From: a virus
Lineage: Duplodnaviria > Caudoviricetes
IMG/VR virus record: IMGVR_UViG_3300032332_001372
Span: 1-62,269 of that record
Reading direction: 5' to 3' (one strand)
DNA length: 62,269 nucleotides
The notes beneath the pieces were generated by a model. The model had not been told where the DNA came from. It did not search any database and was given only the letters and a program-made list of their open reading frames with translations. The position numbers and the translations under genes are program-made. Shown here piece after piece: positions 10,472-18,809 of the stretch; within the stretch, counting starts at the first letter, position 1, and each line of letters starts with the position of its first letter.

Positions 10472-11902
10472 ATGGCAGAGAAACTTGATTTAACGGAGTT
10501 TGGTTCGACGGGCTTGCGCCGTTCGGGTGGAACTGTCTATGAAGAATTTCTTACTAATCTTCGCGGTATCCGCGGCGCTAAGGTCTACCGCGAGATGGCA
10601 GATAACGACCCAGTAATTGGGTCAATGCTTTATGCAATTGAAAAAGTTATTACTCGCCTTGAATGGCGTATTGACCCATTTGAAGAAGATTTACAAGACG
10701 ATTCAGCATCCAATAAAGCCGATGAGGAAGTTGGAAAATTTATTGAAGAATGTCTGCACGATATGTCAGACTCATGGGACCAAACACTTTCAAGTATTTT
10801 AACTATGCTTATTTTTGGATATTCATATCACGAAATTGTTTATAAATATCGCGGTGGGCAAGATGCTAAAGATGGAACTCGCCGCTCAAAATATTCAGAT
10901 GGAAAAATTGGATGGCGCAAATTCCCTATTCGCGCTCAGGAAACTTTGTTCCGCTGGGATATTGATGAAACAGGCGGAATTAACGGAATGGTTCAAGTGG
11001 ACCCTTCAGGCGGCGGAGTTCATTACATCCCAATTGAAAAGGCTATGTTATTCCGCACTAGCGTTAATAAAAATAACCCAGAAGGTCGCTCAATCCTGCG
11101 CAACGCTTACCGACCATGGTATTTTAAAAAGCGCATTGAAGAAATTGAAGCAATTGGTATTGAGCGCGACCTTGCAGGTTTGCCTGTAGCGTTTGTTCCG
11201 CCAGAGTATTTATCAGCGTCGGCTTCAGATGCTCAGAAGGCTGTTTTGGCTTCGGTTCAGCAAATTGTTACTTCTATTAAGCGTAATGAGCAAGAGGGTG
11301 TTGTATTCCCAACTCTCTATGATGAGCATGGAAATAAGCAGTTTGATTTAAACCTTTTATCTTCAGGTGGTTCACGCCAGTTTGATACGGATAAAATTAT
11401 TCAGCGTTACGACCAAAGAATGTCTATGTCTATCCTTTCAGATTTTATTCTTCTCGGTTCAGACAAAGTTGGTTCTTACGCACTTGGTTCAACAAAGATG
11501 GATTTGTGGTCAATGGCTGTAGATTCAATCGCCAAAAACATTGCTGAAGTAATCAATTCTTATGCAATCCCTCGTTTGATGAAGTTAAACGGTATGGATG
11601 TAAGCCGTTGCCCACAACTTAATTACGGCGAGATTAACCATGTTGATTTAACTGAAATTGGCAACTTTGTTACACAGTTGGCTCAGGCTGGAGTTCTTGT
11701 TCCTGACGCAAACCTTGAACACTACTTACGCGATTTGGCTGGATTGCCCGAAGCGGACCATAGCGGTGCAAGTTTTGGTGCGCCTCCTGCACCTGGTCAA
11801 GAACCAGGAGTTCCCGCTGATGCAAATACTGCGGGACAAACAGTTGCCGACCAAGTAAAACCAGTTGAGGGAACGGAACCGCTCCAAGGCGATACGGACT
11901 AG
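10472..11902 (+). CDS. Portal protein (DUF935/Mu gp29-like)
   Basis: 476 aa, first gene of head module; NPEGRSILRNAY, GSYALG motifs. Confidence 0.85.
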   Translation: MAEKLDLTEFGSTGLRRSGGTVYEEFLTNLRGIRGAKVYREMADNDPVIGSMLYAIEKVITRLEWRIDPFEEDLQDDSASNKADEEVGKFIEECLHDMSDSWDQTLSSILTMLIFGYSYHEIVYKYRGGQDAKDGTRRSKYSDGKIGWRKFPIRAQETLFRWDIDETGGINGMVQVDPSGGGVHYIPIEKAMLFRTSVNKNNPEGRSILRNAYRPWYFKKRIEEIEAIGIERDLAGLPVAFVPPEYLSASASDAQKAVLASVQQIVTSIKRNEQEGVVFPTLYDEHGNKQFDLNLLSSGGSRQFDTDKIIQRYDQRMSMSILSDFILLGSDKVGSYALGSTKMDLWSMAVDSIAKNIAEVINSYAIPRLMKLNGMDVSRCPQLNYGEINHVDLTEIGNFVTQLAQAGVLVPDANLEHYLRDLAGLPEADHSGASFGAPPAPGQEPGVPADANTAGQTVADQVKPVEGTEPLQGDTD

Positions 11903-11905
11903 ACC

Positions 11906-12919
11906 ATGGCACTTCGGTTTAGTAAAGCCAACTCAGGAAAAAAAGTTCCACTAACTGCCGAAGAGCAGGTAATGGCTCGCACCCTAATAGATGCTATCCG
12001 TCGAACAACAAACTCAATTTCTGTTCAAGAATTATCGCGCATTATTTCTCAACTAGACGCAGATACTTTAGCCCGCTTGCTTCAACAAATTTCTATAAGT
12101 GGGGATGCCGCCGCAATCAATAGAGCCTTAATGCAATCAGTAAGTTTTGGTGGAACGGATGCAATTCAACAGATTGCTCGCATTGCTCCAATTCTTGCTT
12201 TACCCGCATTTATGCCAACTAAAGTCCAGGTTCTTAATCCTGAATCTTTAGCCAATATGGACTTTACAAAAGTTCCTCGTTGGGCAAGTAATGCACCAGA
12301 TAAGATTAAATTTAATTTAAGTTTTAATAAAACAAACCCAAACTCTTTGGCTTTTGCCCAACGCCGCGCTGGTGAATTAGTGAGAAGTATTGATGAGGCA
12401 ACTCGTTTATCTATCCGAAACATTATTACCGATTCTTTTGCTAATCAAGTAAGCCCACAAATTACCGCTATGCGCATTAAGAATATTATTGGACTTCACC
12501 CTAGATGGGCTGAGGCAGTAGTTGAATTTGAAAAGCGTGAAACTGCTCGTTTAATTAAGGCTGGAGTTTCAGAATCAAAGGCTGTTAAAACCGCTCAAGG
12601 TTCTGCCTCTGCATACGCTGATAGATTAAAACAAGCCCGTGCTACCACCATCGCTCGAACAGAAATTCAGATAGCACAAAATGAGGGACGCTACGAAGGT
12701 TGGAAGCAAGCATCTGATGCTGGGTATGTAGACCCCGCTTCAACTAAAACTTGGATAATTGCTCAAGACGAACGCACCTGCGATATATGTGTTCCCCTTG
12801 ATGGTGAAACAGTTCCATGGAACGGAATTTTTTCAATTGGAGATGAAGTTCCTGGAAGAGTGCATCCTAATTGCCGCTGCACCATGCAAATTAACCCTCC
12901 CGAAATTGCATCATTATGA
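11906..12919 (+). CDS. MuF / SPP1 gp7-like head morphogenesis protein
   Basis: RATTIARTE...KTW...DERTCDIC...HPNCRC; directly after portal. Confidence 0.9.
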   Translation: MALRFSKANSGKKVPLTAEEQVMARTLIDAIRRTTNSISVQELSRIISQLDADTLARLLQQISISGDAAAINRALMQSVSFGGTDAIQQIARIAPILALPAFMPTKVQVLNPESLANMDFTKVPRWASNAPDKIKFNLSFNKTNPNSLAFAQRRAGELVRSIDEATRLSIRNIITDSFANQVSPQITAMRIKNIIGLHPRWAEAVVEFEKRETARLIKAGVSESKAVKTAQGSASAYADRLKQARATTIARTEIQIAQNEGRYEGWKQASDAGYVDPASTKTWIIAQDERTCDICVPLDGETVPWNGIFSIGDEVPGRVHPNCRCTMQINPPEIASL

Positions 12920-13668
12920 CCCAGATAATTTACTTTCAACCTGGATTAAAACCAGTTCTTAAACACCAAGTCCACGACCAAAAGACTCATGGCAACTGGG
13001 CTTTAAGTGAGAACTATCCAGATTTATTAACACTAGGCACATTTGAAGAAGAATTTGAATATGACCCAGCGCTAATGGTTTATAGCGAGCGCTATGGAGT
13101 AGACAAAGACGGCAAAATCGTTGGAGTTGAAACCTTTGAGCATGATGCTATTGATAGTTATTCTCAAGAGGGGTATAAAAATATAAACGCGTTTCTTCGC
13201 AACCCCAGAGGTTTTGAAGGTTCTTATGAAATAAAATTTCTTCAAGAAAAGGTTGATGGGTTAGATTCTTTGATTGATAAGGCTCCAGATATGTTCGGAG
13301 ATAAAACTTTATTTCGAGTCGTAGATAATTTTGTTTTAGCGCAGTTAGCCCCAGGCGACACTCTCAGAGATAAAGGTTATTTATCAACTACACGAATAGA
13401 TTTGACCAAAGATACGGATACTCGGGATGCGCTTGGCGAAATATATGACACACCTGATACCGTTGCTGTCATTCTTCCAAGCCCAACCAAAAGCGGTAAA
13501 GGAATTGCCGTAGACCTTTATCGAACCTCCGTCAATGATACGAGTTCCGTATCAGATAGAGAAAAGGAAGTTCTATTACCTCGCCAAACGGATTTGCTGT
13601 TTTTGGGATATAAAAGAGGTATAGGCTCTGAGGATAAGGTCGCAGTCTTTCAAAGGGTGGATAAATGA
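12916..13668 (+). CDS. VIP2/Alt-like ADP-ribosyltransferase with N-terminal HDQ tag
   Basis: YKNINAFLR, TLFR, GYLSTT, EKEVLLPR motifs. Confidence 0.85.
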   Translation: MTQIIYFQPGLKPVLKHQVHDQKTHGNWALSENYPDLLTLGTFEEEFEYDPALMVYSERYGVDKDGKIVGVETFEHDAIDSYSQEGYKNINAFLRNPRGFEGSYEIKFLQEKVDGLDSLIDKAPDMFGDKTLFRVVDNFVLAQLAPGDTLRDKGYLSTTRIDLTKDTDTRDALGEIYDTPDTVAVILPSPTKSGKGIAVDLYRTSVNDTSSVSDREKEVLLPRQTDLLFLGYKRGIGSEDKVAVFQRVDK

Positions 13669-16295
13669 GCAGATTTAAAACCGTTCTTGAGGATGTTGAG
13701 ATTATCCAAGCCGTTGAAAAACACGGCACTCACGACCAAAAAACCCATGGTAACTGGGCTACGGGTGGAACTCTTTATACAAGCATTATTGACCGCTTGG
13801 CTGCTAAAGATGTAACTGGATTTAGCCTGGATATTTCTAGCCGCAAACAGCCTACGAGCGGCTATATGGCTTCAAATGATGGCGCTGAAAAACCTATCGC
13901 TTACGACGAATTCTTTTCAAGCAGGGATAATGGGCGAAAAATTCTTTTGGACTACATAGAAAAGAACGCAGACGCCCTAAGCGAGCGCGGAGCATATTTT
14001 GGTATATGGGTTGTAAAAGACCAGGGAACCGTGTATCTTGATGTTTCTCGGCGCTACGATTCCAGAGGTGAAGGAGTCCGCGCTGGATTTAGCAATAAAC
14101 AACAATCAATTTACGACATCGACAATGATGCGTATATCTATATGAAGGACGAGGTAGATGACCGAACCAACAAAGCCGTTACTGGTGGAAGTTCCAATTC
14201 CAGTCAATCAGATGACGGACGAAGAAAAGAAAGCCTTCGCGGAGGAAATTCTCAACGCGATAGAAAAGAACCGCTAACAACTTTCCCTCATGTTTGCTTA
14301 GGCAGATATACGGCAGTTCTAAAACACCTTCAGGGTTTGCATGACCAGGCAACTCATGGCGCCTGGGCTAGTGGTCGTTATCCAGAAGATTCAGTCAAAG
14401 CCGCCCGTGATGGCGCCAAAGAATATCTTTTTCAAAAAGGTTTAAAAGGCGATGACACAATTGATTACACAAAAATTGTAGCCAACCGCGAACGGGCATC
14501 TAAAATAGCAGACCTTTACGAAAATCTTCCTAAAATGGACAGAGATGCAGTAGATGAGTATGAGGCGCTTGCATCCGAAGTAGAAGAACAATTTGATTAC
14601 ATGACAAAGACTTTAGGGGTCAAGGTTGAGTTCGTTGCTTCAGACCCTTATAAGACTTCAAAAGAAATGTTTGAAGATGTAAGCAAAGGCTCTCTAAAGG
14701 TTTTATCAACAGCCTCTACTGGCGCTCACCCATTATTTAGCGATGAACAAAATGACAAGTTTAGAGCAGTCCATGATTACTTTGGACACGCTGCTACAGG
14801 TCGAGGATTTGGGCAAGACGGAGAAGAGTCAGCCTGGGTCCACCATTCCCAAATGTTTACAGAAAAAGCGCGGGGTGCTTTAACAACCGAAACCCGCGGA
14901 CAGAATTCCTTTTTTAATAATAGGGGAAAACAATTTGCAGACCAAAAAGTTGCTTTGTTACCACCTGAGTTCTGGCAAGTTCCGAAAGTGTTTGTCAAAA
15001 TGCAAATAATTCGTTTTGCTCCAGGATTAAAACCAATTTTAAAACACCTTCCTGGACAGCACGACCAGTCCACTCACGGAGCATGGGCAACTGGCGGCTA
15101 CAGCGAAGAGCGTCAAGCGGGCATTGCTGCCATGGAAAGCATGGGACCCTCAAGAGAGGACTTGGATAATCTTTATGATGCACTTCAGTCAAGTTCAAGT
15201 GGTCCATCTTTAGATGAGATGAAAGCAATTGTTGAAAATGACAGAGGGCTTTACGAGCAAGCAACTGATGGAATTGATGAAAGAGTTGCCGAGCGACTTA
15301 GCAATTTACAAGAAGAATTTCCTAAACATGAATACACAGAACAAGAAAAATCGACAATTTATGACGATGTTCAAACAGAAATGATTGATGAGTTCATTAA
15401 TTCTGAATCAGACACAATTCATCAGATGTTTGAAGAGTCAAACGGCGGAAGCGACATGGATAAAATAGCAGAAATGCAAGGCTTTATGAATGAGGTTTAC
15501 GCCTATGAACATACTGGAACAAATGCCGCAGGAGAAGAAAACACATATTATTCCGAAGTAACAAACATGGAACCTAGTCCATTTATTCCTGGCGGAATTA
15601 AAATTTACGGCTCTGTTTATACAACAAACGGAGATATTGCTGGAGAATTTGAGCGCACCATGTATAAAGAAAATGGTGAGTGGATGGTTGAGCATGACAT
15701 ATTCCAAATGTTTGATGACCACAAGGGTTCAGGATTTGGAAAAGGTTTTATTGAACAACAAGAAAACTGGTATGTATCCCGAGGATTTGATTCAATTGTT
15801 GTAGGAACCGCATGGGACGGCGCCCGCCATTGGGCAAGAGCGGGCTATGACTGGAATCCAAAAGAAATGACACAAAATGTTACCCAACTAATGCAAAGAG
15901 TTAATCACGAACCAGGGTTTGAGGTTGGCACCCAAAATAGAACTGAATTTGAATCTTTGATGGGTCGCATGGTTGAAAATTACAAACCAGGAACAAATGA
16001 AAACGCTATGGCTGGAACAGGTCTTACATCAGCAAGAGAGTTAAAAGTTAAACCCATGACAAATAATGATTTTCCAATCCCCGCTGATTTTGCAAACCTT
16101 GGAATTGACCGCAAAACTAAAACAGGTAATTTTGTGGACTGGGCTGGAAAAGGGCTGACCGCTGGACTGCACATGAAATACAAGAAGGGCTTGACCGCCG
16201 AAGGTTTGACTATTGCAGAGGGACCAATTGACCGCGATGGCGATGGATTGGTTTATGACGGAACAGCCCGAGAAAAACCAGCCCCAAACAAATAA
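13665..16295 (+). CDS. Three-module polyprotein: unknown (possibly SAM-lyase-like) domain, HDxxGH metal-binding domain, GNAT acetyltransferase-like domain
   Basis: Three HDQ tags split the ORF; FRAVHDYFGH...GEE; HKGSGFG...GARHWARAGY. Confidence 0.75.
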   Translation: MSRFKTVLEDVEIIQAVEKHGTHDQKTHGNWATGGTLYTSIIDRLAAKDVTGFSLDISSRKQPTSGYMASNDGAEKPIAYDEFFSSRDNGRKILLDYIEKNADALSERGAYFGIWVVKDQGTVYLDVSRRYDSRGEGVRAGFSNKQQSIYDIDNDAYIYMKDEVDDRTNKAVTGGSSNSSQSDDGRRKESLRGGNSQRDRKEPLTTFPHVCLGRYTAVLKHLQGLHDQATHGAWASGRYPEDSVKAARDGAKEYLFQKGLKGDDTIDYTKIVANRERASKIADLYENLPKMDRDAVDEYEALASEVEEQFDYMTKTLGVKVEFVASDPYKTSKEMFEDVSKGSLKVLSTASTGAHPLFSDEQNDKFRAVHDYFGHAATGRGFGQDGEESAWVHHSQMFTEKARGALTTETRGQNSFFNNRGKQFADQKVALLPPEFWQVPKVFVKMQIIRFAPGLKPILKHLPGQHDQSTHGAWATGGYSEERQAGIAAMESMGPSREDLDNLYDALQSSSSGPSLDEMKAIVENDRGLYEQATDGIDERVAERLSNLQEEFPKHEYTEQEKSTIYDDVQTEMIDEFINSESDTIHQMFEESNGGSDMDKIAEMQGFMNEVYAYEHTGTNAAGEENTYYSEVTNMEPSPFIPGGIKIYGSVYTTNGDIAGEFERTMYKENGEWMVEHDIFQMFDDHKGSGFGKGFIEQQENWYVSRGFDSIVVGTAWDGARHWARAGYDWNPKEMTQNVTQLMQRVNHEPGFEVGTQNRTEFESLMGRMVENYKPGTNENAMAGTGLTSARELKVKPMTNNDFPIPADFANLGIDRKTKTGNFVDWAGKGLTAGLHMKYKKGLTAEGLTIAEGPIDRDGDGLVYDGTAREKPAPNK
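14158..14277 (+). CDS. 39 aa ORF nested in the +1 frame of the polyprotein linker (candidate immunity peptide)
   Basis: GAGGT RBS-like site just upstream; MTEPTKPLLVEVPIPVNQMTDEEKKAFAEEILNAIEKNR. Confidence 0.55.
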   Translation: MTEPTKPLLVEVPIPVNQMTDEEKKAFAEEILNAIEKNR

Positions 16296-16327
16296 ACCCT
16301 GGTATAATTAGTTATTAAGGAGGCATC

Positions 16328-16489
16328 ATGGATAGAGCAGAACGGTTAAAAAGAATTCAAGCCGCATATGCTGAATTTTCAACGGACTTAAAGTTTGTTG
16401 ATGAAACAGGCGGCTCCGATAAAGATGAATCCGAATTTATGACGCATTTAGCGGAGATGAAATTAACCTCGGTAGAGGAAACTAAATAA
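16328..16489 (+). CDS. 53 aa acidic protein (candidate immunity protein of the GNAT module)
   Basis: Read manually; AAGGAGG RBS, TATAAT and operator motif upstream. Confidence 0.75.
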   Translation: MDRAERLKRIQAAYAEFSTDLKFVDETGGSDKDESEFMTHLAEMKLTSVEETK

Positions 16490-16520
16490 GGGTTGTAATC
16501 CCATCCGCTATCCTTAGCAA

Positions 16521-18809
16521 ATGGCTGACAATACTTTCACTCCTCCAGAGGGAGTTCGTTCCGCTGCAAAGCGGGCGCTAAAGTGGATTGCAGACGGCAA
16601 GGCTGGTAGCGGCTTTACCTCCGTAGGACACACCAGAGCCACACAATTAGCCAATGGCGAAAACATCTCGCTTGAAACTTTGAACAGAATGAAGTCTTTC
16701 TTTTCGCGCCATGAGGTTGATAAAAAGGCTACTGGATTTAATGAGGGAGAACAAGGTTTTCCTTCTCATGGAAGAGTTGCCTGGGATGCCTGGGGCGGTA
16801 ATGCTGGATTTGCCTGGGCTAAATCAAAAGTTGGGGAAACAGAAAAATCCATTAATAAAAGTGCAGATATTGCTCCTCGCTTGGTTGAACTCAGCGTCGA
16901 TAAATTGCGTTCGCTCCATGAGCGTTTACATAAATCCAGCCCAACCGCATCAACCCTAGAAGTCCATCATTTAACTACAACTGAAATGGCTCGCCGCGGT
17001 ATGGAGTTGCCAGTAAACGACGAATGGCAAAATGTCCGTATTCAGATTGATTATTTTAAAGATGTAGACCTCAAATCTTTTGCTTCAACTTTACCCACAG
17101 GACAAATTGAAGATGTAATTAAGGCAACTGGAACTAGCGTTGCTGATGTCAGAGTTGTTTTAACCTCTATTGGCTATGCCATGGAGATTGCCCCAAATGA
17201 TGTAGTTGCAAAAATGATTAAACATCAAAAAGATAAATGGGTTGTTTATGATTCAACAGGAACTCATGCTTTTGGAACATACGATACAAAAGAAGAAGCA
17301 ATGGACCGCATTGCTGAAATGGAATATTTTAAAAAACACCTTCAAGGTCAGCATGACCAAAAAACCCACGCTCCTATTTGGACAAGAAATCTTGTAGATG
17401 CAATAGAAGCGGGAGAACACCCAGAAGTAGAGCCAGAAAATATTTCTGCAATGCTCAAAGGAATGAGTAAATTAACAACCCATCCAGACATTACGGAAGT
17501 AAGCGTAAAAGGACATTTGCTTTTTGGCGGCGAAGGAATGGGTATTGCCCGCAAAGATATGCCCCAGATTCCAAGCAGGGAAAGAGATAGATTTCTTTCA
17601 GAAATTGAAAAAACAGATGGCGTTACTTTTGATAAAGAAAAGGTGGACCCTACAACTTTGAAACCAATTCAAAAAGAAATTTCTGGTTCTCGGGCTGGCG
17701 CTATTTATAATAAATTTGCGGAAGATGGAGGAATTCCAAAAAATGAACGAATTCTTATTTCCTCCGACGGCTTTGTTGTAGACGGTCACCATACATGGGC
17801 AGCATCAGTTGGATTTGCATTTGACAAACCAGGAACAGAAATCCCAGTTTATCGTTTGTCAATTACTGGTAAGGAAGCCTTAAAGATTTCAAATGATTGG
17901 GCAAAAGCAAACGGATTTGAAGGTCAAGCGATTGACGCCAAGGTTAAAAAATCTTTATATCTTTTAGAACCTATGGAAAAGTTTAATCCTCACCATGATG
18001 AAATTGGAAGATTTACAACTGCAACTGGTGGCGGTTCTAGTGGTGCAACCGTAACAGGAAATACGCAAGATGGTTCTCAAGTTGTAAACGGAATTAAAGT
18101 TCCACCCCTTGCTAAAGAACCTGAAATTAAAGCACACAATCCAGTTGCGCTTGCCAAAGCAAAAGAAATTAATGAAACTGCAAAAAGAGTTGAACCAGCA
18201 ATTACTGGATTAATTACTGCAATTGCTCAACGAAGTGGCGGAGAATTTGTTCAGTTAGACCAGAGGATTAAATCAACTGAAGCGTTGGCTGGAAAAATTG
18301 AACGCGAGGCTGTATCCGAACACGGTGGGGACCTTGATAAAGCAGCAGCGGGTATTTCTGATGCCGTCCGTTACACACTTAAAGTTCCGCAATCTGAATA
18401 TACGGCTTCTTTTGATTCAACAATTAAAGTTTTACAAGATGCAGGTTTTACAACAATCCGACCAAAAAACTTTTGGCAATCAGGCGACCCTTATGATGGC
18501 GCTAATATCAAAGGAATCAAAAACGGAATTCAAATTGAAGTCCAATTACACACCCCTGAATCTTTTGCCATGAAAAAGCGTATACACGGGTATTACGAGG
18601 CTTACAGAAAATCCCCAAACGATACGACCCGCAAGAGGATGTGGACTCGCATGGTCAATATTGCTAAAACATTAGAAAAACCAGCCAACTATTCAACTTT
18701 GCTGGGCATCGGAACCCTTGTTTTACAACAATTCCAAACAGCCCAAGAAGTGGGTTTGGTAAAATCAACTAGGGTTGATATACTAAACCTTAATAAGAGA
18801 GAGGGGTAA
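16521..18809 (+). CDS. Polyprotein: head-associated small domains, ParB/Srx-like domain, RelA/SpoT-like (small alarmone synthetase-type) nucleotidyltransferase
   Basis: LKPIQKEI...DGFVVDGHHTW; RIKSTEAL..KI, DAVRYT, KNFW..GDPYDG, IEVQLHT. Confidence 0.8.
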   Translation: MADNTFTPPEGVRSAAKRALKWIADGKAGSGFTSVGHTRATQLANGENISLETLNRMKSFFSRHEVDKKATGFNEGEQGFPSHGRVAWDAWGGNAGFAWAKSKVGETEKSINKSADIAPRLVELSVDKLRSLHERLHKSSPTASTLEVHHLTTTEMARRGMELPVNDEWQNVRIQIDYFKDVDLKSFASTLPTGQIEDVIKATGTSVADVRVVLTSIGYAMEIAPNDVVAKMIKHQKDKWVVYDSTGTHAFGTYDTKEEAMDRIAEMEYFKKHLQGQHDQKTHAPIWTRNLVDAIEAGEHPEVEPENISAMLKGMSKLTTHPDITEVSVKGHLLFGGEGMGIARKDMPQIPSRERDRFLSEIEKTDGVTFDKEKVDPTTLKPIQKEISGSRAGAIYNKFAEDGGIPKNERILISSDGFVVDGHHTWAASVGFAFDKPGTEIPVYRLSITGKEALKISNDWAKANGFEGQAIDAKVKKSLYLLEPMEKFNPHHDEIGRFTTATGGGSSGATVTGNTQDGSQVVNGIKVPPLAKEPEIKAHNPVALAKAKEINETAKRVEPAITGLITAIAQRSGGEFVQLDQRIKSTEALAGKIEREAVSEHGGDLDKAAAGISDAVRYTLKVPQSEYTASFDSTIKVLQDAGFTTIRPKNFWQSGDPYDGANIKGIKNGIQIEVQLHTPESFAMKKRIHGYYEAYRKSPNDTTRKRMWTRMVNIAKTLEKPANYSTLLGIGTLVLQQFQTAQEVGLVKSTRVDILNLNKREG

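Follow-up and report, generated by a model that had tools for sequence, protein, structure and literature searches.

A Probable Small Gene Read Out of Frame within the Linker of a Multi-Module Phage Head-Region Protein

Introduction

Can the spacer between two modules of a phage protein be, at the same time, a gene in another frame? The question is raised by a Caudoviricetes genome, the IMG/VR virus record IMGVR_UViG_3300032332_001372, the whole of which (62,269 nucleotides, nt) is referred to here as the window. An open reading frame (ORF) of 876 codons in this genome encodes a polyprotein of the multi-module (polyvalent) type, in which the modules are preceded by short tags. Behind module 1, the main frame (frame 0) runs on through a linker, and within this linker the +1 frame holds an ORF for a peptide of 39 residues. 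A preliminary description, made from the letters of the DNA alone, proposed that a toxin-plus-immunity cassette had been absorbed into the polyprotein, with the main frame reading through an intact immunity gene. The elements concerned are as follows.

13665..16295, + strand: 876-residue multi-module (polyvalent-type) ORF, frame 0, with the order tag, module 1, linker, tag, module 2, tag, module 3
13755..14156, + strand: module 1, a folded alpha/beta domain according to a structure model, ORF residues 31-164
14145..14154, + strand: Shine-Dalgarno (SD)-like purine run, AAGGA 8 nt and GAGG 3 nt before the ATG
14155..14157, + strand: TAG stop of the +1 frame, directly before the ATG
14158..14277, + strand: embedded +1-frame putative gene, 39 codons and TAA, ATG start, acidic product
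14157..14321, + strand: frame-0 linker across the embedded gene, hydrophilic and poorly conserved

The elements named in the preliminary description were recovered as it gave them. The 39-residue translation is identical letter for letter and the quoted linker text matches the sequence; GAGGT (14151-14155) is followed by AG and the ATG, and AAGGA lies upstream at 14145-14149. The ORF ends about 44-45 nt before the KH of the next tag (14322), where a gap of 45 nt had been given. A second genomic copy of the peptide was not found, the whole 62,269-base record giving one match.

As argued below, the +1 ORF is almost certainly a gene, judging from its conservation. The best explanation of the locus, which can be held with good confidence, is a real protein-coding gene that lies out of frame in the linker of a head-region multi-module protein. 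What the peptide does is a separate matter, on which the readings are more tentative.

Conservation of the Embedded ORF among Relatives

Viral contigs were scanned with module 1 and the linker, and 76 loci were obtained, with identities from 97% down to about 24%. The first comparison used the window and the 52 loci that span the junction; the other 24 were set aside, being cut by a contig end, partial or matched by the tag only. Frame 0 was found to be open through the linker, and the +1 ORF to be present, in 53 of 53 sequences. A cross-tabulation with hidden Markov models was then based on 90 sources, i.e., the window and 89 loci, among them six metagenome loci, four bacterial loci and one named phage. 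The sources were distributed as listed here.

End of module 1 and peptide both present: 66 of 90
Peptide only: 4 of 90
Module 1 only: 5 of 90, two of which are cut by a contig end
Neither: 15 of 90

The preliminary description had named a lack of conservation of the +1 ORF as the result that would speak against it. The opposite was found: wherever both parts are present (66/66), the peptide is encoded in +1 right behind module 1, within one and the same open stretch of frame 0. The module that follows the peptide is variable: clades A and B have module 2 there, clades C and D and locus L054 have module 3, and locus L069 has another one. The link between module 1 and the peptide is also kept when extra modules are placed ahead of module 1 (L029). 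In many clade A phages (L002, L004, L009 and others; e.g., L002:4494-4643), a short deletion in the linker removes the stop of the peptide, which then runs 10 residues further, to 49 residues, with its helix core unchanged.

A similar peptide encoded by a separate, non-overlapping gene after module 1, which the preliminary description had suggested looking for, was not found in these relatives. This includes a scan with peptides of the clade C type that look stand-alone, in which all six loci proved to be embedded again. Among named phages, a DNA search gave no match and a protein search gave one distant match, Fusobacterium phage phiKSUM. This phage was rejected as a carrier of the peptide, since its module 1 stands alone and the small ORF behind it is unrelated. 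The frame-0 stretch after module 1 in L064, which by eye could be taken for an in-frame peptide, was rejected as well, as the A1 and 90-sequence family profiles were silent even at E ≤ 10.

Selection in the Two Frames

The frame that selection acts on can be read from the codon position that varies most. In module 1 and in the next tag, this is frame-0 position 3. Between 14161 and 14274, frame-0 position 1 (third in the codons of the +1 frame) varies most and frame-0 position 3 least. The reversal, which emerges from the comparison of codon positions proposed as a check in the preliminary description, is seen in three clades, represented by 23 (A), 11 (B) and 10 (C) distinct sequences. In clade A, the entropies at frame-0 positions 1/2/3 are 0.28/0.15/0.77 in module 1, 0.52/0.21/0.15 in the overlap and 0.32/0.30/0.62 in the next tag. 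A sliding scan over all 876 codons of 24 distinct sequences found position 1 to be more variable than position 3 only in four windows, which span 14133-14312.

Substitutions were also divided into those synonymous in frame 0 and nonsynonymous in +1, and the reverse. The ratios of the first class to the second, with the p values of Fisher tests, are given by clade.

Clade A: module 1, 138:38; overlap, 8:29; p = 1e-10
Clade B: module 1, 135:42; overlap, 7:30; p = 8e-11
Clade C: module 1, 148:59; overlap, 12:32; p = 7e-8

The overlap thus has an approximately four-fold excess of +1-synonymous changes. Within the three clades, the identity of the peptide against that of the frame-0 linker is 88 vs. 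75%, 80 vs. 69% and 61 vs. 50%. Between clades A and B, it is 56% for the peptide and 40% for the linker, and between clades A and C, 24.5% and 17.7%. At the level of sequence comparison, these data show purifying selection in the overlap to act on the +1 frame.

The linker is nevertheless read. Codons were resampled with the protein of one frame fixed (3000 trials, 10 representatives). With the peptide fixed, frame 0 stayed open in a fraction of only 0.000-0.005 of the trials in 10 of 10 representatives, so the frame-0 linker is stop-free only through a constrained choice of codons in +1. Frame 0 is open against odds of 0.005 or less, and therefore both frames appear to be read; as far as codon choice can tell, the resampling shows frame 0 to be actively kept open by selection. 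Furthermore, no start codon for the next module precedes its tag in clades A and B, so that this module must be reached by read-through. The claim of the preliminary description that the main frame reads across an intact +1 gene agrees with these results: both frames are kept open, with selection mainly on +1. Motifs that appear in frame 0 (DDGR, hydrophobic-Arg) are, in our reading, by-products of conserved +1 residues (MTDEE, [FY]A).

Structure and Family of the Peptide

An AlphaFold2 model built with 26 sequences gives an extended N-terminal segment (residues 1-15) and a helix (residues 21-38), with a mean predicted local distance difference test (pLDDT) of 78. A family profile of 39 positions, made from 26 peptides, was searched against 1.84 billion proteins. 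It matched 102 proteins at E ≤ 1e-3, of which 89 have 110 residues or fewer, and the core motif is roughly hh-E-V-P-K-P-V-x-x-M-T-x-E-E-x-x-A-F-x-x-E-I-L. In the search for a family name, Pfam and PHROGs gave nothing below E 0.03 and Atlas gave no usable match. Proteins matched in several stretches (P0010, P0020, P0034, P0084, P0090 and P0098) were discarded, as they consist of repeats of an MTxEE-like helix and were judged unrelated.

Outside the polyproteins, the peptide was found as a stand-alone gene of 46-48 residues at four loci, in metagenome-assembled genomes (MAGs) from fresh water labelled as Actinomycetota, Candidatus Planktophila and Polynucleobacter. There, it adjoins excisionase-like and integrase-like genes or overlaps the gene of a zinc-ribbon protein. 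Tandem copies of the same unit of about 35 residues, and fusions of it with zinc-ribbon or TPR proteins, were also found (P0046, P0057, P0033, P0016, P0045 and a 123-residue ORF of L081).

Some side observations can be added on these stand-alone forms. A zinc-ribbon-like segment (CxxC...CxxC) stands beside the peptide or is fused to it, on either side, in L079:4171-5106, L081:4119-4490, P0046, P0057 and P0044. L080:3696-6656 and L082:3699-6653, a pair from a Polynucleobacter-labelled and a Candidatus Planktophila-labelled MAG, are very similar small integrative elements, each with an integrase, a protein of about 290 residues, an excisionase-like gene, the peptide gene and an ORF of about 80 residues. 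The flanking cargo of the two differs, and that of L080 has a C-5 cytosine methyltransferase-like ORF. Their likeness may be ascribed either to transfer across phyla or to an artefact of binning.

Initiation, Expression and Origin

The homologous first codon of the peptide is ATG in 51 of the 53 sequences and GTG in the other two. Clade D has lost the ATG in all six loci, with a change of the codon before it from GTA to GTG; L054 and L069 use a GTG start, too. Where the ATG is lost, a GTG has been gained one or two codons upstream. An SD-like motif is present in 19 of 19 distinct upstream regions, as AGGAGG 8 nt upstream of the start in clade C and as GAGG 3 nt upstream in clades A and B, often together with AGGA 8 nt upstream. 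The fold of the RNA was no better than that of shuffled sequences (z = 0.27).

From these features, internal initiation on the late mRNA would be the best reading. Some ribosomes would initiate at the peptide's own SD and ATG; the resulting acidic peptide, of about 39 residues, would combine an extended N-terminal segment with a single amphipathic helix. The remaining ribosomes would read frame 0 through, and the linker would then lie as a flexible spacer between module 1 and the tagged module behind it.

The ancestral state was probably three adjacent genes: module 1, the small gene and the next tagged module. After the loss of its stop, module 1 would have been joined to the next module by translation that continued over the small gene in a different frame, which would, by inference, make the linker and not the peptide the younger reading. 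Since free-standing homologous small genes exist in integrative elements of freshwater MAGs, the linker probably arose by read-through over an older small gene. For the same reason, the wording of the preliminary description, in which the small gene was "absorbed" into the polyprotein, is a reasonable account of its history.

Several points weigh against the peptide as a gene of this kind. The spacing from GAGG to ATG is only 3 nt in the clade of the window, which the preliminary description had already called short. The search for an internal promoter gave no promoter-like site nearby, so that expression depends on internal initiation within a translated ORF. The openness of the +1 frame is unremarkable by itself: with the frame-0 protein fixed, +1 stayed open in 10-100% of the resampling trials, which is not surprising because the linker has few hydrophobic codons; the signals from the comparison of relatives, by contrast, are far beyond chance. 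In the deepest comparison, between clades B and C, the peptide is conserved no better than the frame-0 linker (23.7 vs. 23.2% identity).

Module 1 and Its Possible Pairing with the Peptide

If the peptide is made, does it act on module 1? The model of module 1 is a confident alpha/beta domain (pLDDT 77; predicted template modelling score, pTM, 0.72). Module 1 has no Pfam family, and its sole PHROG match, phrog_3170, has no assigned function. A comparison of its fold with the PDB by Foldseek gave no match at E ≤ 0.001, and the best Z in a wide VIA-align search was 3.7. Its relatives in BFVD and Atlas are uncharacterised phage proteins, either stand-alone with about 120-140 residues or inside proteins of 800-1100 residues.

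Co-folding of module 1 with the peptide, which the preliminary description had suggested, gave a score of 0.57 against a best of 0.11 in three controls. At least 33% of the contacts agreed between runs, and the pLDDT of the partner was at least 65. The mark used for such scores was reached by 58 of 80 solved complexes and by two of 110 mismatched pairs. Among the scores at the mark, however, those of 0.60 or lower belonged to only seven of the 80 solved complexes, but to both mismatches that passed. As the co-folding used its own alignments, the calibration counts hold only roughly. The result therefore supports a pairing weakly.

A tentative guess is that module 1, in the producing cell, is bound by the peptide, which would act as its partner, chaperone or inhibitor. 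A more elaborate version is possible but rather unlikely: module 1 and the peptide may form an effector-and-keeper unit, in which the peptide, made separately from the common mRNA, would keep a module 1 destined for injection inactive or folded inside the producing cell and be left behind at the packaging of the tagged polyprotein, and the linker would have come about by "reverse overprinting" over an older gene that still works and belongs to a widespread mobile-element family of about 40 residues in freshwater bacteria.

These proposals have to be weighed against the occurrence of each part without the other and against the nature of module 1. Module 1 occurs without the peptide in L057, L064 and L083. 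In L057, it is a separate gene ending in ...TGGTGE*, at the place where clade C has the SD and start of the peptide, and no peptide follows. Conversely, the four stand-alone homologs of the peptide have no module 1 within about 4 kb. Many database entries that appear to be independent small proteins are the same embedded ORF called on fragments (e.g., P0008, P0009), and a metagenome scan with six such peptides (P0024-type) led back to embedded loci each time. Module 1, moreover, has no toxin-like family or fold. The toxin-plus-immunity cassette of the preliminary description fares accordingly in two ways. The small ORF does travel with module 1 while the downstream module changes, and this part stands; module 1, on the other hand, is unlike known toxins, and each part is also found alone (four loci for the peptide and three for module 1). 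A toxin-immunity function is unproven, and these separate occurrences partly contradict it.

An alternative that survives comparably well, although it is tentative too, is that the peptide is real but independent of module 1, a small mobile-element protein (e.g., a regulator or a binder of a host factor) that was trapped when the genes were fused. A freely acting peptide directed at a host factor is given a weight similar to that of binding to module 1. The stand-alone homologs in integrative elements, the fusion of the same unit to zinc-ribbon and TPR proteins or its tandem repetition, and the loci in which module 1 lacks the peptide are all consistent with such independence. It is less easily reconciled with the attachment to module 1, which the peptide keeps in all 66 phage sources that have both parts despite the shuffling of modules upstream and downstream, and the co-folding gave weak support rather than none. 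Both the pairing and the independent peptide presuppose the embedded gene, for which two further explanations were considered.

Frameshifting and the Absence of a Product

Frameshifts are common in the structural operons of phages, and a programmed ribosomal shift to +1 after module 1 would yield a stand-alone module 1 with a helical tail beside the full polyprotein, and this would suit both the position of the peptide directly after module 1 and the hint from co-folding that it packs against module 1. However, among 40 distinct junctions, 10 have a +1 stop immediately ahead of the start and 20 more have one four codons upstream of it. Such stops bar entry by frameshift from upstream, so that the shift would have to take place within the conserved ORF. 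Every sequence begins this ORF with ATG or GTG, the latter newly formed from GTA in clade D where the ATG is lost, and the SD-like motif is never missing from the 19 upstream regions. A conserved slippery site or a stimulatory structure was not noticed, in line with the z of 0.27 for the RNA fold. Frameshifting is, therefore, very improbable.

The idea that the +1 ORF has no functional product and arises incidentally from a hydrophilic linker, or from nucleotide-level constraint on RNA structure or composition, could appeal to the ease with which +1 stays open on resampling and to the lack of a Pfam, PHROGs or Atlas family for the peptide, but it is hardly credible and already contradicted by the comparative data, namely the three-periodic variability in the +1 register in three clades and only here, the four-fold excess of +1-synonymous changes, the conserved start codon and SD, the homologs that are separate genes, and an RNA fold no better than shuffles.

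The Locus and Its Neighbours

The source record carries direct terminal repeats and is rated 100% complete. The host of the phage is probably a freshwater bacterium, and the locus is also present on contigs of about 61 kb in IMG/VR. The gene order across 10472-18809 is Mu-type portal, MuF-like head protein, ADP-ribosyltransferase, 876-residue ORF and 762-residue ORF. Because the portal and the MuF-like protein lie directly upstream, the locus is assigned to the head-morphogenesis region. The features around the embedded gene are listed below.

10472-11902, + strand: Mu-type portal, directly upstream of the locus
11906-12919, + strand: MuF-like head protein, directly upstream of the locus
12916..13668, + strand: ADP-ribosyltransferase of 250 residues with an N-terminal tag of the KHxxxHDQxTHGxWA form (PF03496, E 2e-10)
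13719..13760, + strand: tag 1 (KHGTHDQKTHGNWA), before module 1, disordered in the model
14322..14369, + strand: tag 2 (KHLQGLHDQATHGAWA), before module 2
14277..15029, + strand: module 2, matching phrog_3170 positions 75-272 (E 3.6e-51)
15030..16292, + strand: module 3, which follows directly after module 1 in clades C and D

Tags of the KHxxxHDQxTHGxWA type start the ADP-ribosyltransferase and all three modules of the 876-residue ORF, and one is found at an internal site of the 762-residue ORF. The tag, which is disordered in the model of module 1, looks like a shared virion-targeting or processing signal. In L057 (2475-5654), the modules are separate genes, each of which opens with a related tag (MKDAKGHGSD...). 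Module 2 corresponds to positions 75-272 and module 1 to positions 302-411 of phrog_3170, which has 433 positions; other phages thus hold both modules in the reverse order in one protein.

Comparison with Known Systems

Embedded out-of-frame genes are known from phages, examples being Rz1 inside Rz of lambda (+1 frame) and genes B in A and E in D of phiX174. As in those cases, a short gene with its own start and ribosome-binding site would lie wholly inside a longer gene, with one mRNA for both products. Here, however, the host frame encodes no folded domain but the spacer between modules of a multi-module head-region protein, and selection is mainly on the embedded frame. In classical overprinting, the embedded frame is the novelty, whereas the embedded gene here appears to be the older one, with stand-alone relatives.

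Two groups of phage proteins resemble the locus more closely. For MuF-type polymorphic toxins, Jamet et al. (2017, PMC5576092) describe small downstream ORFs as candidate immunity genes. The likeness lies in the position directly after the portal and MuF, in effector-like modules that include an ADP-ribosyltransferase, and in a very small ORF directly after an effector-like module. Unlike the MuF toxins so described, module 1 is separate from MuF and no toxin domain can be recognised in it, and the small ORF is embedded in a continuing polyprotein rather than placed downstream of a stop. The peptide, at 39 residues, is also much shorter than typical immunity proteins, and an immunity role is putative here.

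In the main text of Iyer et al. (2017, PMC5512222), polyvalent proteins of phages and conjugative elements are presumed to travel with the DNA through packaging and delivery. The likeness to the proteins of that text lies in a single polypeptide that is composed of several unrelated modules and encoded next to virion genes (portal, MuF), and the locus was found to have three modules whose order is shuffled among relatives, with the portal, MuF and ADP-ribosyltransferase directly upstream. In contrast to what the text describes, the modules of the 876-residue ORF have no Pfam family at E ≤ 0.01, so that the catalogued effector, peptidase and LPD families were not encountered, and they are separated by the repeated tag. 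The words "overlapping", "frameshift" and "linker" have no occurrence in that main text, which indicates that an embedded gene is not part of the description of polyvalent proteins given in it. A literature search, supplements aside, found no description of an embedded gene within a polyvalent-protein linker. ADP-ribosyltransferases are noted in phages of this sort by a freshwater phage survey (PMC6802176).

Gene finders skip an ORF that lies inside a longer one, yet the comparative signals rank this ORF among the most constrained stretches of its locus. More genes of this kind may be concealed in the junk-like linkers of polyvalent and other giant phage proteins. The locus would offer a clean natural case of a fusion-protein spacer dictated by an older gene in another frame, and it defines a new small-protein family common to freshwater phages and integrative elements. 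If it is true that the peptide controls module 1, the toxin/immunity logic of head-packaged effectors would extend to polyproteins.

The Region Downstream

Some minor observations concern the region behind the 876-residue ORF. An ORF of 53 residues (16328-16489) lies between it and the 762-residue ORF (16521-18809). As with the 876-residue ORF, a Pfam search of the 762-residue ORF gave no family at E ≤ 0.01. The latter contains a ...FNPHHDEIGRFT... motif, and the same motif opens a module in L064. It also has a DGHH-containing segment in common with the N-terminal module of L069 (30% identity, E 1.5e-8).

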